Position numbers and translations under genes: made by a program. 15,076 nucleotides of DNA, taken from positions 1 through 15,076 of IMG/VR virus record IMGVR_UViG_2531839662_000027; one strand, given 5' to 3'. Below, in pieces: positions 1 through 14,295 of this stretch; position 1 is the first letter of the stretch; every line of letters begins with the position of its first letter. Source of the stretch: a virus. Its lineage: Duplodnaviria > Heunggongvirae > Uroviricota > Caudoviricetes. The notes beneath the pieces are model-generated. The model ran no database searches. It was not told the DNA's origin and saw nothing but the letters and a program-made list of their open reading frames with translations.

Positions 1-952
1 TTATTCAGCCTTAGCAAAAGTGGTCATAGTTGTTCCACTGAAAGTGAATGACCTGTCTGTAAGAGTAACATCCTGAATAGCAAAGTAATCGCCAACACCA
101 GCGCCATTTACATAAAACTCGAATATCTCAGATGTATTTTCCGGAATAATATTATTAGCAATATAACACGTAGATAAAGAACCATTTGTTGATGGTAAAG
201 TTCCAAATAGCGTTGCATCCGATGCAGCATATATCGAACTGCTTAAATAAATATTTATATCAACATTACTCTCATAAGTAACAATTAAGTACACCCGGTC
301 GTTAACCTTCCACCCTCTGTCTTTTATCTTAGTATTAAGTGATAGCTTGTTAGAACTAGGGGTCGTTACGGTATTAATGGTTATTTTTGCTCCTATTGAG
401 TTGTATCTGCTTCTGGTTACTGTATTACCAGTATTGTTCATTGTATAAAGGATTGCTCTGCTTTCTGCAAACGTCCTCATATTAATCTTGCCTAAACAAT
501 CTCCTTCCATAACTTGTGGGCCAGACACAGTTGCACCAATATAACAATTAGTAAATACAGCATGAGCCCTGTTGTCAGTGCTTGATGCAAGTAATGAAAG
601 TTTAAAGTTGCCCTGATCTGCAATCCAGCAACTATCAACCTTAACTACAGCATCATTGTCAAGAACAACAAACCTTCCTCCCTCATTGTAATATCCTACA
701 AAAGCATTTACACCGCTTATTTTTACTACTCCATCTGGAACCGTAAAGATATCGCCTTGTATCGCTTCGCCATAGTACCCGCCAACAATATTGGTCACTC
801 GGGTATTTAAGTACATGCCATGCCCAATGCCGAACTCAAGGTCACATCCAATTAAGCTTAAACCTTCAATAGGGGAAGTACCAGAAGCATAAAAGGCATA
901 TTCACCGACCTTATTTGATGCAAATCCACAGTTATTGAACGTTACGCGGTTG
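1..952 (-). pseudogene. Tailspike gene (P22 gp9-type), C-terminal portion downstream of the IS1 insertion; stop codon at 1-3
   Basis: ORF 1..966 (-) continues in frame from the 1719-2769 fragment once IS1 and one copy of the target duplication are removed; the residues encoded from 966 down to 953 come from the IS1 end. Repetitive Gly/Asn/Val-rich beta-strand-like composition is consistent with a beta-helix receptor-binding domain. Confidence 0.7.
945..952. repeat. Left copy of the 8-bp IS1 target-site duplication (CGCGGTTG)
   Basis: Identical octamer directly flanks both IS1 ends (945-952 and 1719-1726). Confidence 0.7.
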
Positions 953-966
953 GGTAGTGCATCCAA

Positions 967-1362
967 TTAGTAGAACATGTGTTTTTCGATAAACGCTCCG
1001 ATCACTTTTTCGTGGATCTCAACTGAGCGTGAGAAGCAGATTGTTTTACGAGCCAACCGCTTAATGCGGGTGCGTAGCGTCAGATTATTACGCTCAATGC
1101 GTTGGGTGAATATTTTGCCGGTCAGATGCTTATTCTTCGGCACCTCCCGGCCATAGCTGCCCCAGTCATCGCTGGTCAGCATGCCGATGTTGAAGGGTGT
1201 AAGCAGTGCCAGTAGCTCCCGGCACGTTTGATCGGTTCGGGGACCAAAAGTGTAGGCCAGTACACCGCCTGTTTTGGTGTTGTACGCGTACCAGAGCCAG
1301 TGTTGCCGGGCTTTACTGCCAACGTAGCTCCATTGCTCATCAAGCTCGCAGATAAGCGCCAC
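967..1362 (-). CDS. insB: IS1 InsB reading frame (normally expressed as InsAB' transposase by -1 frameshift from insA)
   Basis: Translation aligns by eye with IS1 InsB (motifs ELDEQW.YVG, YTQRIER.NL.LR, SFSKSVE.H.KVIG); lies directly downstream of insA in the -1 frame. Confidence 0.8.
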   Translation of the reverse strand: MALICELDEQWSYVGSKARQHWLWYAYNTKTGGVLAYTFGPRTDQTCRELLALLTPFNIGMLTSDDWGSYGREVPKNKHLTGKIFTQRIERNNLTLRTRIKRLARKTICFSRSVEIHEKVIGAFIEKHMFY

Positions 1363-1388
1363 ATCAGCATGGGCAACAGGCGAAGACG

Positions 1389-1661
1389 TTATTCGCTTTG
1401 GCGCGAGTTTTTTAAAGTCCGGATGACGGTGTTAATACCAATTTTCAGTGTCCTGGCGGTATCGCGAACCCCGGCACCATTAAAGGCCATTTCAGTTATC
1501 AGCTCTTTCATACCCGGCTTACGTGCTTGATAAGTATAAGTGAGCTGAAACACACGGTGGCAGTCACGGCAGCGAAATCTGTCACGGCCTTTAGGGTTCT
1601 GACCATGGCGGTAAACCTGAGCTGACTGACAACGGGGACAATGAATATTAACGCTGGCCAT
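1389..1661 (-). CDS. insA: IS1 InsA (zinc-finger transposition regulator)
   Basis: 90-aa protein with a CPxC...CxxC zinc-finger N-terminus and helix-turn-helix C-terminus, colinear with IS1 InsA (MASV.I.CP.C...); divergent from classical IS1. Confidence 0.85.
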   Translation of the reverse strand: MASVNIHCPRCQSAQVYRHGQNPKGRDRFRCRDCHRVFQLTYTYQARKPGMKELITEMAFNGAGVRDTARTLKIGINTVIRTLKNSRQSE

Positions 1662-1718
1662 GAGATAACCTCAAAAGCCCGTATTATACATCAGATTCAA
1701 CTAATTAGAGGCATCACC

Positions 1719-1726
1719 CGCGGTTG
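1719..1726. repeat. Right copy of the 8-bp IS1 target-site duplication (CGCGGTTG)
   Basis: Identical to 945-952. Confidence 0.7.
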
Positions 1727-2769
1727 TTAGCCCCAGCAAGGTGAACTCCGCGATTTGGCGCAGGAACAAAAGAACAGCAATCATAGGTATTAAGCCAGTC
1801 GTTTATAGTATAGAAGTTCGCCACCACGCCATTGATGAAACGACAATTATGGGTTCTTCCTAGGTGAACATATTGAATTCGGCAAGCATAGTTGGCGATG
1901 TTGTTCCCATCAACTGTAACGTGAGAGATAGATGTGCTACGTCTTATAGAGTCAGTTTCGTAGTACATGTTGACAACTGTCTCTCCAGTGAACCCACTCC
2001 CCGCAATAATGAATGACTTCTCAACGCCATCCCCGAATAGGTCAACAGTGCCTATTGTTAAATCAACTGGTGACTTAACATAGTAAGTTCCTGCAGGGAC
2101 AAACAGCCTCTTTCCTGCCGATAAAGCAACTGCTGCAGCAGCATTAAAGCTAGCTGAGTTATCTGCCGCTGGATCACCAGTAATGGGGAAAAATTGAGCA
2201 ACAGAAATATAATCTGCTACCGTCACTTCGTACCATGGCAAAGCAGGAGATGACGGAAGAGTGCCACTACCACCGGTGTAGATTTTATTATTATACCACC
2301 ACCAGTTATCAACATTAGATAACACCCCCTCCTGCCACACCCCCCCTAACGAGAAATCAAGACCGTAAGAAGTAGCTATCTGACTTAATGATAATGTTGC
2401 TCCTCTGTCAGAAGCTAATTCTTGCCTTAATTGGTCAGGGTCATACTTCAGCACATTAGGAAAATAGAACTGCTGTGCACCATACGCATCATAAACAGCC
2501 ATAGAATGGCCTTGCACAGTTACGAACTTGGCAATCTGTCCGTTATATACCGGATATCCAGCAGCGTTAATGATGATTGGTTGCGAAACAGGAACGTGAG
2601 AGCCGTCTTCGTTCTCCACATAAACCTGAATCTGGTTTTCAGGATTTACAGGGTCAGTGTCAATTTTACCGATATAAATTTTGCCATTGGCTACGGCTTT
2701 AAAAGAACGAGCCATAGTGAAGAGTTGCGAAGGCATGCTTACCACAACATTTGCGGTGATATCTGACAT
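1719..2769 (-). pseudogene. Tailspike gene (P22 gp9-type), N-terminal portion upstream of the IS1 insertion
   Basis: From ATG at 2769-2767 the protein starts [13 protein letters not shown]...[37 protein letters not shown]...[13 protein letters not shown]...NVLKYDPDQ, matching the P22 tailspike head-binding domain as I recall it ([13 protein letters not shown]...). The frame is cut one codon into the IS1 end. The track ORF starts 16 codons earlier at 2817; 2769 is preferred by homology. Confidence 0.8.
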
Positions 2770-2890: not shown

Positions 2891-3151
2891 ATGTACAGCA
2901 AATACGACGATGCGCAGTTTCACTTGAGACTTCCGCATGAACTCCACGCGAAAATTAAACAGCGTGCGAAGATGAATAACAGGTCACTGAACTCAGAGAT
3001 AATTGCAGCGATTGAAGAATCATTGGCTAAACAAAGCTCTGCATCAGTTTACATTGACGATGCAGAGCGTATGGCAGAACAACAATCTGATATGGTTAAG
3101 AAAATTGTCTTTGATACGCTCAAAGAGATATATAAAAAAGACAGCAACTAA
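2891..3151 (+). CDS. mnt: Mnt-like ribbon-helix-helix repressor (Arc/MetJ family)
   Basis: Protein MYSKYDDAQFHLRLPHELHAKIKQRAKMNNRSLNSEIIAAIEESL...DDAERMAEQQSDMVKKIVFDTLKEIYKK resembles P22 Mnt as recalled (..NDAERLADEQSELVKKMVFDTLKDLYKK); P22-like synteny next to the tailspike. Start at 2891 preferred over the track start at 2858 by alignment and a GAGG 9 nt upstream. Confidence 0.7.
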   Translation: MYSKYDDAQFHLRLPHELHAKIKQRAKMNNRSLNSEIIAAIEESLAKQSSASVYIDDAERMAEQQSDMVKKIVFDTLKEIYKKDSN

Positions 3152-3168: not shown

Positions 3169-5014
3169 TTACTTCTGGTTATCATCACTGTTCATCCAGT
3201 ACATGATGCCTAGCCTTGATATGGTTTTCTTATCTGATTCTGGAAGTGAGTTGTAAAACGAGCGCCAAGCAGAAGAGCGTCTTACAGTTGTATCAACGAT
3301 GCTTTCTGGTGCTTGTTTTACTGCCAGCCTTGCTGCTTTCTGGAATTCTGGTGAGCTAATTAGCTTTTCTGCAGATTCAATTGATTCAGCGCCGCCCATC
3401 GCCCTGATTTTGCTGGCGACTTTTGCCCCAATTTCTGACCCAGCAACAGCACCTACTGCACTGAACGGTCCTGACACAGTTGAACCAACCGCAGTGCCAA
3501 TGCGTTGGGCATGGTTAGCAACAAATTCATTTGCCGCAGTGACGCGATTAAACCGTTTTACGAACTCGTTTAGTCTTCCTGTAGTTATCTCGTAAGATTT
3601 TGCGTCTTTGATAGCCTTTGCGACCTTATATACATCGTTCAGACCTGACATAGTCTCTTTTGGTAAATGTCGGGCAAGATTGCGCATCTGCCCGTTTGCT
3701 AACATGTTTTGATACCAGTCAGCAAACCCTGCAGGATTAAAATCAGCGCCACGTTTTCCGTTCGAAAGCATATCCCGAAGACCTGTTCCCAGTAGCTCGG
3801 TTCTTAGCTTCCTGGACGGCGTGTTTTGCATCAATTCACGAAATCCTTTGGCATCGCCTTTCGACATTGCCTGTAGTGCTGTAGTTGCTTTGCGAGAAAC
3901 ATCACCGTTCAGCGTTCTGCCAGTTAGATTAATCATTTGCTCTTCCATGCTTTTTCGCATCTGAACAAGCCTCTGAGCAACTTCAAAATCACGTAATGCA
4001 TTTGTCTCTGACAGCGCCGCCTTTTGATCATCGGCGAGCGAACCGTAAAGCCTCGATAAAGCAGCGCGATCAGCATCTTTATATGGTCCAGAATTCTTAT
4101 GAAGTGCATCACCAACAAGTCGTCGTTGCTTATTGAGATTTGCATAAGTTAATGCGCCGTTCTTGCCTGGATTAACTGCCCGAAAGACTCTCTTTTCAAT
4201 AGGGTCAAGGTTTTTCATCCCGCCAAGATCTTCTGCCACCTGTTTGAGCATTGACCTTGTTGATGGCGCATCAATTTTTGCACCTGCAGGCATCGCCTTT
4301 TCAACATTGCGATAAAGCTGGTCGCTTCGTTTCATCAGCGCAGACATTCTTCCATTGACCGTATCAATAAACTTGTCGCTCATACCAAGAGCATCTTTTG
4401 CACCGGAAACGCGATCAATTATCTCCCCCGCGCCCTGTGCTAGCTGCCTGATTGCTTCATTTTCCTGCACCTGTAGAGCAGAACCCGCACGGGACTTGAT
4501 TGCTTGCTCAACTGCCTTGTATTGCTCGTTCCCGGAAAAGTGTGAAGGGAGTAATGAATCAACATTAAGCCTTTCAGCAGACTCCAGAACTTCAGCCTGA
4601 GGATTGATATCTAGTTCATCAAGCGATGAAGCGAGATTTGGCCTTTTTTGTGCTGCTACTGTGCGAACGACTTCCTCTGGGTTCCTCGTCGCAGGCGTCA
4701 TTGGTACACCTTGTGCTACTCTTGCCTCTGCGGCATGAACCGCAGGATTTGTTGCTGCAGCGGCATCACCGGAGAATGGTGATGTTTCTGTTGGCGCCGT
4801 GGTCGCTCTCTGTGCAGATGTTTTATTGCCACTAATTATATTTGATGCACCACGAACACCACGGGTAACGCCATTTATCAGGCCATGCGTAGCAATGTTA
4901 AGTCCGGCATTAATAGCGGCATTTTCGGCAAAATCACCCCGTTGATTCGCCGCGTCAGCGAGAGAACCAATGACCATGTTTCCAGCTACACCTGCTCCAG
5001 GAACAAGATAACCG
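3169..5014 (-). pseudogene. Ejection (injection) protein, P22 gp16-like: portion downstream of the IS629 insertion
   Basis: 602-codon frame joins in frame to the 6325-6713 fragment when IS629 plus one CCG copy is removed, giving about 743 codons; last gene of the gp7-gp20-gp16-like series before mnt/tailspike. Confidence 0.55.
5012..5014. repeat. Left copy of the 3-bp IS629 target-site duplication (CCG)
   Basis: CCG immediately flanks both IS ends (5012-5014, 6325-6327); a 3-bp duplication is typical of the IS3 family. Confidence 0.55.
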
Positions 5015-5068
5015 TGAACCGCCCCGGAAATCCTGGAGACTAAACTCCCTGAGAAAGAGGTAAACAGG

Positions 5069-5395
5069 ATGACTAAAAATACTCGTTTTTCCCCCGAAGT
5101 CCGTCAGCGGGCGATTCGTATGGTTCTGGAAAGTCAGGATGAATATGACTCACAGTGGGCGGCAATTTGTTCCATTGCCCCAAAGATTGGCTGTACGCCG
5201 GAGACTCTGCGTGTCTGGGTTCGCCAGCATGAGCGGGATACCGGGGGCGGTGATGGTGGGCTCACCAGCGCTGAACGTCAGCGTCTGAAAGAGCTGGAAC
5301 GTGAAAATCGTGAACTGCGCCGCAGTAACGATATCCTTCGCCAGGCTTCCGCTTATTTTGCGAAGGCGGAGTTCGACCGCCTCTGGAAAAAATGA
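5069..5395 (+). CDS. IS629 OrfA (helix-turn-helix, leucine-zipper transposase N-terminal part)
   Basis: 108-aa ORF, IS3-family OrfA architecture; sequence recognised as IS629 OrfA. Confidence 0.9.
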
Positions 5396-6282
5396 TGCCA
5401 CTGCTGGATAAGCTGCGTGAGCAGTACGGGGTCGGACCGGTATGTAGCGAACTGCATATTGCCCCGTCAACGTATTACCATTGTCAGCAACAGCGACATC
5501 ATCCGGATAAACGCAGTGCCCGTGCGCAGCACGATGACTGGCTGAAGAAAGAGATACAGCGCGTATACGATGAAAATCACCAGGTATACGGTGTGCGTAA
5601 AGTCTGGCGTCAGTTGTTACGGGAAGGTATCAGAGTGGCCAGATGCACTGTGGCACGTCTCATGGCAGTTATGGGACTTGCCGGTGTTCTCCGGGGTAAA
5701 AAGGTCCGCACTACCGTCAGCCGGAAAGCCGTTGCCGCAGGCGACCGCGTAAACCGTCAGTTCGTGGCAGAACGACCTGACCAGCTGTGGGTGGCTGATT
5801 TTACTTACGTCAGCACATGGCAGGGCTTCGTCTATGTGGCGTTTATCATTGATGTGTTTGCCGGATACATCGTGGGGTGGCGGGTCTCATCGTCTATGGA
5901 AACGACATTCGTGCTGGATGCGCTGGAGCAGGCGTTGTGGGCCCGTCGTCCGTCTGGCACCATCCATCACAGCGATAAAGGCTCTCAGTATGTGTCACTG
6001 GCCTATACGGAGCGACTAAAAGAAGCCGGATTACTGGCATCAACAGGGAGTACAGGCGACTCGTATGACAACGCGATGGCTGAGAGCATCAATGGTCTTT
6101 ACAAAGCGGAGGTAATACACCGTAAGAGCTGGAAAAACCGTGCAGAAGTGGAACTGGCCACACTAACGTGGGTGGACTGGTATAACAATCGACGATTGCT
6201 GGGAAGGCTGGGCCATACTCCTCCGGCAGAAGCAGAAAAAGCTTATTATGCTTCCATCGGAAACGATGATCTGGCAGCCTGA
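5392..6282 (+). CDS. IS629 OrfB (DDE catalytic domain; expressed as OrfAB by -1 frameshift)
   Basis: 296-aa ORF overlapping orfA by ATGA; integrase-like DDE region (..[16 protein letters not shown]..). Confidence 0.9.
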
Positions 6283-6324
6283 GTTCACAGATAAAACACT
6301 CTCCAGGAAACCCGGGGCGGTTCA

Positions 6325-6327
6325 CCG
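6325..6327. repeat. Right copy of the 3-bp IS629 target-site duplication (CCG)
   Basis: See 5012-5014. Confidence 0.55.
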
Positions 6328-6713
6328 CCTATTGACTCTCCAGCTTGCGCGTAGGGGTCTGTCGGTCTGTCTACTGGACGATAAACATCATCCAATACTT
6401 TTGGCCCCCCAAGCCCCTGACTGATTGCATTAATCAGACTTGCGCCACCCTGCAATACGTCAAATGGTATGTTTACCAGACCACGACCAGCCTGTTCTGC
6501 AATTTGCCCTGCACTTTGACCACCAGTGAGCCAATCGCCAGCTTGTTGCATCAATGATGGTTCTTCCCGTGTTGGTGCATTATTGGCCTGATTAACTGTT
6601 TGTTGCTGAACAGCCTGACCAGCAAAATACTCATCAATGGCGGTGCCAATATCTTCGGTGCTCGTACCATCAGGGAAGGTAAATGTCTTACCGTTTGCAG
6701 TTACTTTCATCAT
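6325..6713 (-). pseudogene. Ejection protein gp16-like: N-terminal portion upstream of the IS629 insertion
   Basis: Start ATG at 6713-6711 overlaps the stop of the upstream gene (ATGA coupling); native coding runs to 6325, and the last 13 codons of the track ORF (6285-6323) are read from the IS629 end. Confidence 0.55.
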
Positions 6714-8116
6714 TCCACCGTAAATTGAATGCCTGATTTTGAGGTATATGATCCAACCTGATTCCTTGGTTCTCCTGAAGGTGTCGAATCTTGTGCTGGC
6801 GCTGCGTCAGTATTCATTGACATATACCGCTTAACGGCACTCCCCAATGATTCACCTTTTTTAACATCCAACCCCAATATCTGACCGCCATTACGCGATT
6901 GTCCTGGATTGCCATTCGCGCTCATCCACTCGGCTTTAAACTCATTAAACTGCGCGTTTCGTCGCTCAAGGTTTGCCATCGCATCAAGCCATCTTGCGAC
7001 CGTCTCAGGGTTATCCATGTCAGTTGGCGCACCCTGTCGAACGATCTCAACGTCTTTATCCGTTGCTGGGCCGGGAGGTAGGAATTTAAGAACCTGACTG
7101 TTAACAAGGGCATTTTGGCGAATGCGCAAATCACGCAATGTTGTATCGCTTCCGGTAAGTTTTGCGAACATGTTCTGTGCGTTACCGAACAAACCTGTCG
7201 TTGGTTTTTCTGCTCTGAACTGTTGAGCAAGCGCACTCATAGAATTGGCTGAGTTTGATGATGCTGTAGCATTGTTTACAGCCGTCTCGATGCCTTTTTC
7301 CATGTTTACTGACAGCTTAGGTGCTTCGCTAATCAACTGCTGAGCCTTTTCCTGCGCTTGCTGCATCTTAAACCCGAACTCTTGCTGATCCAGAGCCAAG
7401 CGTTGTGCTGCGATATTGTGCCCTGTCATTGCTGACTGATAGGAAAGGTTTTGCCCTCTCGCCTGAAGTGCCTCGCCAGCCTGATTGCTGCGGATTGTCT
7501 CTGCCAGCCTGCCTCGGTCAATCTCACGACCAGCCATCTTGTCCTGAACATTGAAGTAGTCAATCGGACCGAGAGCAGCCATCCCAAGGTGATCAACAAA
7601 CTCACCAAATCCTGAAGGATTCTGCTGATACATCTGAGCAACGCTGTTAGGGTCAACACCGACGCGAGTCAGTTCCTTGGCGTTGTTTTGCAGCCATGAT
7701 TGCATTGCTTCTGGAGACGATGACGCAAGGCGTGCGCCAGCCGCTAAGGTGCCGATAGAATTGCGCTGGTCTTCATCAATGAATCCCATGCCTTTACGAA
7801 CGGATTCAATCTGGTCTGGATATTGAGTAGCCAACTGACGCAAAGCACCGCGATCACCAGACGCATAAGCATTAGCGTACGCCTGCTGAAATTCTTTCTG
7901 CCGCTGAGCCTGCTTTTCCTGCTGAAACACCCCTGCAATGCCTGAAAGGCCTTGCAAAGCAGTAAGCCCAACATTGTTAGCGCCTGAACGCTCAATATCA
8001 TTGTTCTGCCTGATAAGCTGAAGCGTATTGCCGATGTCATTTACGCTCGGAGCGTTTGAGTTGACGCCGCCGATACCAGCTAACAATCCGCCATTTGATC
8101 CTTGCCAAGTAGCCAT
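6710..8116 (-). CDS. Ejection (injection) protein, P22 gp20-like, 468 aa
   Basis: Size nearly identical to P22 gp20 (471 aa as recalled), Gln/Ala-rich helical composition, position between the gp7-like and gp16-like genes, translationally coupled at both ends. Assigned by synteny and size, not by a verified alignment. Confidence 0.6.
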
Positions 8117-8125
8117 GATTACCCC

Positions 8126-8504
8126 TTAAAACAACGAGCCAAGCAATCCGATACCAGCACCAATGCCAGCGCCCCAAGGTGTTGATGTTCCCAAAAGGCT
8201 GGCAAGACCTGCACCGGCAATCGCACCAGACGTTCCGCCACTAATTGCTGTCTGAAGACTTGATGGTTTGTTGGCATTAGCAGCGGCAAGAGCTGCGCTT
8301 TGCTGTGCAATGCTGCTCATGTTGTTGGCGTACGTCTGCCCGGCGTTTGCCTGACCTTGCAGAGCACCAAGCCCAACGTTTGCCAGATTGTTGTAATTGC
8401 TCATCTGGTTTGATAACCAAGACTGACCGAGAGTCGGCGCGATCGTAGCCAGTTGATTGCTTGTGGCTGTCGAACCAAGTCCTCCCGTAACCGCGAGGCA
8501 TCGA
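8126..8504 (-). pseudogene. 3' fragment of a gp7-like ejection protein gene, 5'-truncated at the deletion junction
   Basis: The open frame runs into cro-derived DNA in a frame different from cro; the first 17 codons of track ORF 8126..8554 are cro DNA read out of frame, so no native start or RBS remains. C-terminus is Gly/Ala-rich and hydrophobic. Confidence 0.45.
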
Positions 8505-8582
8505 CTATACGCCGAGATCTTTAGCTGTCTTGGTTTGACCAAAGCGCATTGCATAATCTTTCAGAGTTATGCGTTGTTCCAT
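8505..8582 (-). pseudogene. cro: cro, truncated after codon 25 by a deletion junction
   Basis: Minus strand reads CATGTACTAAGGAGGTTGTATGGAACAACGCATAAC...AAAGATCTCGGCGTATAG: lambda cro RBS and first 25 codons (MEQRITLKDYAMRFGQTKTAKDLGV), then a stop where lambda has TAT CAA AGC; sequence 3' of 8505 is unrelated to cro. Confidence 0.8.
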
Positions 8583-8606
8583 ACAACCTCCTTAGTACAT
8601 GCAATT

Positions 8607-8676
8607 ATTATCACCGCTAGAGGTAAAATAGTCAACACGCACGGTGTTAGATATTTATCCCTTGCGGTGATAGATT
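8607..8676. promoter_or_regulatory. Lambda-type right operator: oR1 (8609-8625), oR2 (8633-8649), oR3 (8656-8672), with pR (minus strand) and pRM (plus strand)
   Basis: 17-bp operators TATCACCGCTAGAGGTA, CAACACGCACGGTGTTA and TATCCCTTGCGGTGATA match lambda oR1/oR2/oR3 with one change in oR1; pRM-like TAGATA (8648-8653) and TAGATT (8671-8676) precede a leaderless cI ATG at 8683; pR -35/-10 read on the minus strand at 8635-8630 and 8612-8607. Confidence 0.85.
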
Positions 8677-8679
8677 TAA

Positions 8680-9396
<717 letters not shown>

Positions 9397-13993: not shown

Positions 13994-14295
13994 GTAATTC
14001 CGCACGACTACAGCTTGGTTTTTCACCGCTATCAAAAACTATCATGCTGGCAAAAATGCGCGATGTTGAAGGTGGACGTATGCGCGTTGGCAATGATCCA
14101 GGTCGTGATGCACGAAGAAAAGACAATAACAATCCTCGCACTCGCGGGGATTTCTTTTATCTGAACTCGCTACGGCGGGTTTTGTTTTATGTAGATGATA
14201 AATGCACTTCAGAGTCACAGGTGAATGGAATGGAGAGCCATTCAACAGAGTTATCGAAGCAGAGAACATCAACGACTGCTATGACCACTGGATAA
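13990..14295 (+). CDS. Doubtful ORF (GTG start, 101 aa, low-complexity Arg/Asp/Asn-rich)
   Basis: Open frame only; competing antisense ORFs; composition not protein-like in places. Confidence 0.2.

Follow-up and report, generated by a model that had tools for sequence, protein, structure and literature searches.

The window, by which we mean the whole stretch of 15,076 nucleotides that was analysed, begins with a minus-strand gene that is almost certainly a P22-type tailspike gene broken by an insertion sequence (Table 1). It runs from an ATG at 2769, with GGAG upstream at 2780-2777, to a TAA at 3..1. As it stands, the reading frame of the 5' piece enters IS1 and stops, giving a 351-aa product that ends in ANNRG and is deposited for E. 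coli 2.3916 as EII46793.1. The 3' piece holds the second half of a beta-helix and a C-terminal beta-sandwich (aa ~518-660, window ~15-444); the GC content of window 1-500 is 35%. When IS1 and one copy of the target duplication were excised in silico, the two pieces joined in frame to an ORF of 664 aa, which has 100.000% DNA identity with its unbroken counterpart in E. coli UMNF18. The intact allele is WP_001280408.1.

Table 1. Coordinates of the features in and around the tailspike gene (window positions).
Feature	Position	Strand	Basis or remark
Tailspike gene, 3' piece (remainder of codon 351 to codon 664, and stop)	1..944	-	In-frame join, AF2 model
Candidate catalytic carboxylates D385 (843-841), E387 (837-835), E410 (768-766)	766..843	-	Conservation and model
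Target-site duplication CAACCGCG, 8 bp	945-952 and 1719-1726		Two UMNF18 alignment blocks overlap by 8 bp (UMNF18 locus 14275-14282)
IS1-family insertion sequence, 766 bp	953..1718	-	Exact alignment break against UMNF18; same orientation as tailspike gene
InsB frame	967-1362		Within IS1
InsA	1389-1661		Within IS1
Tailspike gene, 5' piece (codons 1-350 and base 1 of codon 351)	1719..2769	-	ORF list, sequence, reconstruction
Conserved neck module, aa 114-182	2224..2430	-	Tailspike alignment
Head-binding (virion-docking) domain, aa 1-113	2431..2769	-	PF09008; PDB matches 7sg7, 2xc1, 1lkt
Arc/Mnt-family repressor gene (immI-like region)	2891..3151	+	Pfam Arc/Repressor_Mnt; RefSeq annotation in UMNF18; divergent from tailspike
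P22 gp16-like ejection protein gene, two pieces	3169-5020 and 6335-6710	-	Pfam Phage_P22_gp16, Inj_translocase
IS3-family element, 1,314 bp, splitting the gp16-like gene	5021-6334		Pfam HTH_Tnp_1, rve; junctions from UMNF18 alignment
gp20-like ejection protein gene	6710-8116	-	

The interrupting element has the size (~768 bp expected, 766 bp found), the terminal inverted repeats (GGTGATGC.../GGTAGTGC...), the InsA and InsB domains and the target duplication (8-9 bp expected, 8 bp found) of the IS1 family. Pfam placed Zn_ribbon_InsA, HTH_Tnp_IS1 and DDE_Tnp_IS1 on the called IS1 gene, and the copy has 99.5-100% identity with elements annotated as IS1 in many E. coli genomes. Its insertion at codon 350/351 inactivated the tailspike of a P22-like (Lederbergvirus-type) prophage. 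The tailspike is non-functional in E. coli 2.3916 because IS1 parts the docking half of the protein from its catalytic and C-terminal half; this copy is a pseudogene and cannot work.

As expected of a P22-like tailspike, the gene closes the late region and is preceded by the ejection-protein genes and immI. The order gp20, gp16, Arc and tailspike is that of P22-like phages, and fuller prophages carry gp7, gp20, gp16, Arc, Mnt and Ant ahead of the tailspike. In the 2.3916 prophage, everything between cro and gene 7 is gone and a second insertion sequence lies in the gp16-like gene; the prophage is a remnant.

Modules of the reconstructed tailspike

The first-pass annotation had proposed a P22-type head-binding N-terminus of ~110 residues, followed by divergence from P22 into a Gly/Asn/Val/Thr-rich right-handed beta-helix, and the reconstructed protein bears out each of these points. 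PF09008 (Head_binding) matches aa 1-113 over its entire length (profile 1-113 of 113, E 2.8e-67), with 86/113 residues (76%) identical to P22 gp9. Similarity to gp9 ends near residue 120: the full-length P22 tailspike chains 2xc1 and 8tvr are matched over residues 1-120 only, and the IS1-excised protein does not align end-to-end with gp9. Comparison with the tailspikes of HK620, Sf6 and CUS-3, which had also been suggested, placed the head-binding domain nearer to this E. coli-Shigella group (85-95% identity) than to P22. Identity reaches 104/113 (92%) with Sf6 gp14, and the N-terminal anchor is 85-93% identical to those of HK620, CUS-3, IME10 and Sf101. This domain would dock the spike onto the tail hub.

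The head-binding domain is followed by a conserved neck, predicted in the AlphaFold2 (AF2) model as two short helices and small strands. Among the tailspike proteins collected, this neck is common to tailspikes with other anchors and to one other body type. An alternative tailspike type of 695 aa matches only from aa 1 to ~180, and six genomes match the body query with 94% DNA identity over its first 182 nt. The point of exchange with other E. coli tailspikes is located near residue 180, past the neck, and not at residue 110. Recurring behind several unrelated virion anchors, the neck is probably the recombination joint.

The body is very probably of the depolymerase type and unrelated to that of P22. 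It consists of 35% Gly, Asn, Val and Thr and matches PF12708, a pectate-lyase-like beta-helix family, with 37.1 bits against a curated cut-off of 27; the Pfam family of the P22 tailspike body gave no match in the protein, nor did any Pfam family besides these two. The AF2 monomer (pLDDT 90.8, pTM 0.86) was predicted as a right-handed parallel beta-helix (aa ~205-497) with a C-terminal beta-sandwich (aa ~518-660). This model was computed from a body-only alignment of 84 sequences; with full-length input, N-termini of unrelated kinds had been matched up with the head-binding domain and the pLDDT was 62. The relatives were gathered by an exhaustive search of representatives, since a word-indexed profile search yielded fewer proteins than a single-sequence query. 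The top Foldseek matches are tailspike depolymerases, namely CBA120 TSP4, the Klebsiella K2-2 TSP, Depo32 and the Sf6 TSP, and the solved structures nearest in fold are phage depolymerases that act on O-antigen or capsule, with 10-16% identity. The family profile found the Sf6 TSP (E 5e-22) and Geobacillus E2 ORF18 (E 1e-22), and the protein aligns over its whole length with PHROG 7173, annotated as 'tail spike protein' (E 1e-190).

Conservation and the model point to D385, E387 and E410 as likely candidates for the catalytic residues of a glycoside hydrolase. D385 and E387 belong to a C-D-x-E motif and E410 to a Y-x-G-E motif; all three are kept in 85-99% of the 84 family members, are placed by the model on strands of successive helix rungs, and lie downstream of the IS1 break. 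Uronic-acid substrates can be cleaved by lyases. The gene ugd adjoins both the O141 and the O147 loci, which we counted against a firm assignment as a hydrolase, and the enzyme could be a lyase. By analogy with solved tailspikes, the spike would be a trimer that binds and cleaves surface polysaccharide, and this cleavage would open a path for the virion to the outer membrane.

Host distribution and the candidate receptor

The body was seen in E. coli prophages only. A tblastn search with the body against 50,697 phage records found no cultured phage that carries it, and the IMG/VR scan gave no close relatives, only distant ones with 24-26% identity. Among 5,426 complete E. coli genomes, seven contain the body and 14 contain the O141 wzx-wzy genes, and five of these 14 also hold the body (Fisher p ~1e-12, or 3e-10 with identical alleles collapsed). 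In the O141 hosts the body occurs in four prophage contexts: a composite prophage at ybhC-ybhB; two P22-like prophages, apparently complete, one at argW (VG48B2) and the other beside dacD (ST12468); and a different podovirus-type prophage in which it stands behind a T7-fibre-like N-terminus, the protein being ~99% identical from the neck on. Roughly 90 draft genomes carry the body, and in at least four further genomes among the drafts the tailspike pairs with O141 Wzy or Wzx by neighbouring accession numbers. An Acyl_transf_3 gene, which we take to belong to the Pfam family of the Sf6 O-antigen acetylase, adjoins the tailspike in the P13-6 prophage.

The two other carriers are UMNF18 (O147) and ET245, which has another O cluster, flanked by IS1. 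The lineage of the source strain is apparently O147 as well, as accession numbers link IS1-broken partial proteins to O147 genes. O147 was considered as the main association and rejected, the body being present in only one of seven O147 genomes. In six other O141 records the neck is followed by a different body, and this body is therefore not the only one that serves O141 strains.

Because O141 strains make up five of the seven carriers and hold the body in four independent contexts, one of them with a different anchor, we lean, by a modest preference, towards the E. coli O141 O-antigen rather than the Salmonella O-antigen as the receptor. The association gives good support to the earlier suggestion that the spike targeted a polysaccharide other than the Salmonella O-antigen cut by P22.

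The same host distribution could have arisen in other ways. The body might recognise another surface polysaccharide that co-occurs with O141, such as a porcine K-type capsule, colanic acid, or an O-antigen that O141 and O147 have in common or that cross-reacts between them. We regard this as unlikely, even though the O147 strain UMNF18 holds two intact copies, dTDP-L-rhamnose synthesis is encoded in both the O141 and the O147 clusters, both of which adjoin ugd, and capsule depolymerases are among the structural neighbours. Against this reading, the body is missing from six of the seven O147 genomes. Residues 2-563 match PHROG 8280, which is annotated 'tail spike protein with colanic acid degradation activity', but this label is unspecific because the Sf6 TSP, an O-antigen endorhamnosidase, is matched just as well. 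Colanic acid occurs in almost all E. coli, and as a receptor it would not account for a distribution of 7/5,426 centred on O141. The association could also stem from the shared ecology of porcine ETEC or from a linked surface antigen, for example a K antigen; however, the O141 carriers were isolated in four countries, from pigs, from human blood and from a farm environment, making a shared porcine K antigen less likely.

The link to O141 might instead be hitch-hiking by descent, with the prophage inherited among related strains and the receptor unreadable from the hosts. In favour of this, P13-6 and ETEC1716 carry one and the same allele in a shared site, the alleles of ST12468 and ET245 are nearly identical and lie at parallel coordinates although the O loci differ, and many of the prophages are degraded and hence old residents. 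Nevertheless, such an origin seems very improbable, given that the O141 hosts show four different sites of insertion or types of prophage, that one of these has a different N-terminal anchor, which calls for independent acquisition, and that the alleles differ by 0-1.7%.

With the O141 O-antigen as the slightly favoured receptor, we are fairly confident of the account as a whole, in which the locus holds an IS1-inactivated P22-like tailspike of four modules, whose substrate is most likely the O141 O-antigen. A wider proposal is more tentative. The body might represent an uncharacterised family of depolymerases, marked by the signature C-D-x-E ... Y-x-G-E and comprising ~90 diverged members behind many different phage anchors, of which the E. 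coli member could be the first O141-specific tailspike. The second, unrelated body behind the same neck in other O141 strains might then be an alternative enzyme for the same O-antigen, the two being swapped at the neck as a recombination cassette. The literature searched contained no O141-specific tailspike and no usable published structure of the O141 or O147 repeat unit.

O141 is a classic serogroup of E. coli causing porcine oedema disease and post-weaning diarrhoea. Tailspike bodies set which O-serogroup a podovirus infects, and they find use both in serotyping and as the modules that give engineered pyocins and phages their specificity; if the O141 specificity is true, the intact allele WP_001280408.1 would be a ready candidate reagent. 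The locus is also instructive for genome annotation, as an example of the erosion and rearrangement of tailspike genes by IS elements and by recombination between prophages.

Comparison with known tailspikes

The locus is an ordinary instance of the well-known swapping of tailspike modules. With P22 gp9 the tailspike has in common the head-binding domain, the genomic position, the role in the virion and a beta-helix body, whereas the sequence of the body and its predicted substrate differ, and no homology to gp9 ~125-666 was found.

Sf6 gp14, an endorhamnosidase (PDB 2vbk, 7sg7), has the same plan of docking domain, neck, beta-helix and C-terminal beta-sandwich, and its gene likewise follows the ejection-protein genes. 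The first half of the beta-helix is homologous (aa 148-371 against Sf6 134-355, hhalign probability 98.4%), but homology does not extend over the whole body: nothing is alignable past aa ~372, a part that takes in the C-terminal domain and the region where the catalytic residues of Sf6 lie. These Sf6 residues are E366 and D399; we equate no residues of the present protein with them, as the homologous stretch ends before they are reached. The two proteins also fall into different PHROGs (28781 for Sf6, 7173 for the tailspike studied here), the Foldseek TM-score is only 0.32, the necks are unrelated (4/27 residues identical), and the host is S. flexneri for Sf6 and E. coli O141 and O147 for the present body.

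CBA120 TSP4, the Klebsiella K2-2 TSP and Depo32, the best structural neighbours, likewise combine a depolymerase-type right-handed beta-helix and a C-terminal beta-sandwich (Foldseek E 1e-12 to 1e-10, TM ~0.5), yet they differ in their anchors and substrates and are 11-14% identical. These matches reflect a common fold class, not family membership.

The modular tailspikes of the HK620/CUS-3 type offer a further parallel, in that the same body stands behind different anchors in hosts of one serogroup. E. coli O-antigen tailspikes are modular and exchanged between phage genera, and the occurrence of one body behind different anchors within one serogroup has served as the criterion for assigning serogroup specificity (Pas et al. 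2023, PMC10408124). O141 is absent from the serogroups assigned in that study, and the tailspike described here, with its body behind different anchors in O141 hosts, follows the same modular pattern.

The tailspike gene and its interruption

Excision of the IS1-family element together with one copy of its flanking 8-bp duplication restores an in-frame protein of 664 residues, whose numbering is used here. The window aligns with Escherichia coli UMNF18 in three blocks, each at 100.000% identity, and the only breaks are the IS1 element and the IS3-family element. The reconstruction is therefore a real intact gene elsewhere, annotated in UMNF18 as 'phage tailspike protein' (RefSeq WP_001280408.1). 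The window copy belongs to E. coli 2.3916 (GCA_000194535.2), in which the IS1 interruption at codon 350/351 precedes both the conserved carboxylates and the C-terminal domain. Its truncated product of 351 residues (EII46793.1) could dock at most and could not cut. Partial proteins at contig ends bunch at residues 342–350 and 349–356, which shows the same IS1 break in several sequenced isolates. The contig-end fragments breaking at this site have three different 5' allele types (P0029, P0032, and P0033), so that either the IS1-bearing segment moved among alleles via recombination between copies, or IS1 inserted repeatedly at one spot. The last 500 nt of the gene (window 1–500), encoding the C-terminal beta-sandwich, have a G+C content of only 35% compared with 42–52% elsewhere in the gene and in IS1, which suggests a separate low-GC origin for this domain.

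Features of the tailspike gene, its product, and its genomic settings
Feature	Position	Strand	Remark
Tailspike gene start (ATG)	2769	minus	GGAG at 2780–2777 ahead of it
Tailspike frame, first piece	2769 to 1719, then into IS1	minus	ORF and sequence
Tailspike frame, last piece	from 944; TAA at 3..1	minus	TAA at the exact window edge
IS1-family element, 766 bp	953–1718		inverted ends GGTGATGC.../GGTAGTGC...; InsA and InsB frames
8-bp duplication CAACCGCG	both sides of the IS1-family element		
IS3-family element, 1,314 bp	5021–6334		108-aa HTH_Tnp_1 ORF and 296-aa rve ORF; splits the P22 gp16-like gene in 2.3916; IS629-like in size
Neck, two short helices and small strands	aa 115–182		AlphaFold2 model
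Capping helix	aa 205–217		AlphaFold2 model
Right-handed beta-helix	aa about 221–497		AlphaFold2 model
C-terminal beta-sandwich	aa about 518–660		AlphaFold2 model
Setting 1 of the body	between ybhC and ybhB		P13-6; degraded composite prophage, Acyl_transf_3 gene alongside
Setting 2	argW		apparently complete P22-like prophage
Setting 3	adjoins dacD		another P22-like prophage
Setting 4			ETEC4090; different podovirus-type prophage, 763-aa protein
wzzB, UMNF18	L012 12431–13408		internal stop
wzzB, P13-6	L015 30636–31614		frameshift
wzzB, ET245	L016 26215–27969		IS1 insertion

The prophage in the window is what deletion has left of a larger one. Its cro is truncated and runs directly into a likewise truncated gene 7-like 'DNA transfer protein' gene (window about 8120–8680; 8733–9189 in the aligned UMNF18 locus, L001); the whole stretch from the immunity region to the ejection genes has gone, and with it the genes for replication, lysis, terminase, portal, coat/head, and tail hub. 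The gp16-like ejection-protein gene is frameshifted, also in the annotation of UMNF18, where the IS3-family element is absent. UMNF18 carries a second tailspike copy in a fuller prophage beside ybhB-bio, inverted and about 2 Mb away from the copy in the argW remnant; the two differ at 34 nt, 33 of which fall within the first 504 nt. Accession EII44901.1 suggests that 2.3916 also has a second copy. Outward from window position 1, the argW-type remnant of 2.3916 continues into the ybhB-bioA flank (99.975% over 8 kb; locus L002 12770–21056 against loci L005 and L001). The arrangement points to a large inversion, which would have occurred through recombination inside the 3' 1.5 kb, where the two tailspike genes are identical.

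Docking domain, neck, and exchange of the body

Residues 1–113 match Pfam Head_binding over the full profile length (E 2.8e-67) with 76% identity to the P22 tailspike gp9, which confirms the P22-type head-binding N-terminus noticed in the first-pass annotation, and with 92% identity to gp14 of the Shigella phage Sf6. By tblastn against phage genomes, the first 120–135 residues are 85–95% identical to HK620, CUS-3, IME10, and Sf101, beyond which no match to these four was detected. Judged by these identities, the docking domain belongs to an E. coli/Shigella subgroup, not to P22 proper. The body does differ from that of P22 as proposed: alignments to full-length P22 tailspike chains end at residue 120, and no end-to-end alignment with gp9 was seen.

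The neck (residues 114–182) is nearly invariant among enterobacterial relatives with P22 head-binding, TSP1/Gp66-type, or T7-fibre-type N-termini. It is also common, at 94% DNA identity, to a 695-residue P22-type tailspike with an unrelated body (P0018). Set against other E. coli tailspikes, the exchange point therefore falls behind the neck, near residue 180 and not at residue 110. The neck has the appearance of a cassette at which recombination swaps bodies. This stretch of about 69 residues (window 2224–2430) has no Pfam family and precedes at least two unrelated bodies. No homologue of the body was detected in any cultured phage among 50,697 records; its known occurrences are in prophages and uncultured viral contigs only.

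Association of the body with the O141 gene cluster

DNA of the body is present in seven of 5,426 complete E. coli genomes, whose O-antigen loci were typed from the RefSeq annotation. P13-6 has the O141 cluster, the wzx-wzy segment of which occurs in 14 genomes, including five of the seven carriers (P13-6, ETEC1716, VG48B2, ETEC4090, and ST12468). The association has a Fisher's exact p of 1e-12, or 3e-10 with identical alleles collapsed. In a further carrier, ET245, an unnamed O cluster lies between IS1 elements, and the genome has coordinates parallel to ST12468, an O141 strain, suggesting that the O locus has been replaced. In at least four further draft genomes, neighbouring accession numbers link the tailspike to Wzy or Wzx of O141. 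The remaining carrier, UMNF18, is O147; neighbouring accession numbers in draft genomes likewise pair the IS1-broken fragments with O147 genes, and the body is absent from the six other O147 genomes. We regard the E. coli O141 O-antigen as the most likely receptor, with a confidence slightly above even; the main rival is a co-occurring glycan or cross-reactivity between O141 and O147. The suggestion that the target is other than the Salmonella O-antigen is supported by the O141 association.

Among the O141 carriers the body occupies four distinct settings. In ETEC4090 the N-terminus is T7-fibre-like, and identity in the body, from the neck on, is about 99%. Serogroup specificity has been assigned when one body recurs behind different anchors within the hosts of one serogroup, and the serogroups so assigned do not include O141 (Pas et al., PMC10408124). 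Our literature search found no paper tying O141 to a tailspike. All six complete-genome records sharing the neck only, with the P0018-type tailspike, also carry the O141 gene cluster; in total, the neck is followed by one or the other of the two bodies in 11 of the 14 O141 records. In three hosts that carry the tailspike, wzzB, which encodes the O-antigen chain-length regulator, is present as a pseudogene. The 'colanic acid degradation' label of PHROG 8280 was discarded as a substrate clue, since the Sf6 tailspike matches this family equally well.

In P13-6 (O141:H4), an intS pseudogene and an Acyl_transf_3 gene come after the tailspike (locus L032 21674–24861), even though the prophage lies at the lambda attachment region. 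The O-antigen acetylase of Sf6, annotated beside the Sf6 tailspike, probably belongs to the Pfam family Acyl_transf_3. The P13-6 prophage is composite and may encode O-antigen acetylation.

Fold of the body and its relation to Sf6

An exhaustive profile search returned 91 cluster representatives covering the whole body at E < 1e-30, with N-termini of widely differing lengths ahead of it. An alignment of 84 of them served as input for AlphaFold2, which modeled the body with a pLDDT of 90.8 and a pTM of 0.86. The Gly/Asn/Val/Thr-rich beta-helix anticipated in the first-pass annotation is borne out by the composition (35% for the four residues), by a Pfam match above the curated cut-off to the pectate-lyase-like family PF12708, and by the modeled right-handed helix. 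The structure prediction and domain search it proposed for the IS1-excised protein yielded a beta-helix and a beta-sandwich, with Head_binding and PF12708. Phage polysaccharide depolymerases lead the structural comparison (CBA120 TSP4, Klebsiella K2-2 TSP, Depo32, Geobacillus E2 ORF18, and Sf6 TSP), all with 10–16% identity and TM of at most 0.52; they establish the fold class, with no close solved relative. D385 and E387 (C-D-x-E) and E410 (Y-x-G-E), 85–99% conserved among the 84 relatives, are placed on strands of successive rungs and probably serve as the acidic catalytic residues of a glycoside hydrolase.

Sequence-profile homology to known structures is confined to the first half of the helix, where the body-family profile detects Sf6 TSP (E 5e-22) and E2 ORF18 (E 1e-22); hhalign pairs residues 148–371 with Sf6 134–355 at a probability of 98.4%. 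In the proposed comparison with HK620, Sf6, and CUS-3, the docking domain proved close (85–95%), whereas the body is related to Sf6 in the first half of its helix only. The present analysis contributes an architecture of four modules, a distant relationship to Sf6, a candidate catalytic motif, and a statistically strong association that makes serogroup O141 the candidate target. The protein falls end-to-end within PHROG 7173 ('tail spike protein', E 1e-190), whereas the Sf6 tailspike belongs to PHROG 28781. The tailspike in the window is an ordinary IS-inactivated case of tailspike module exchange.
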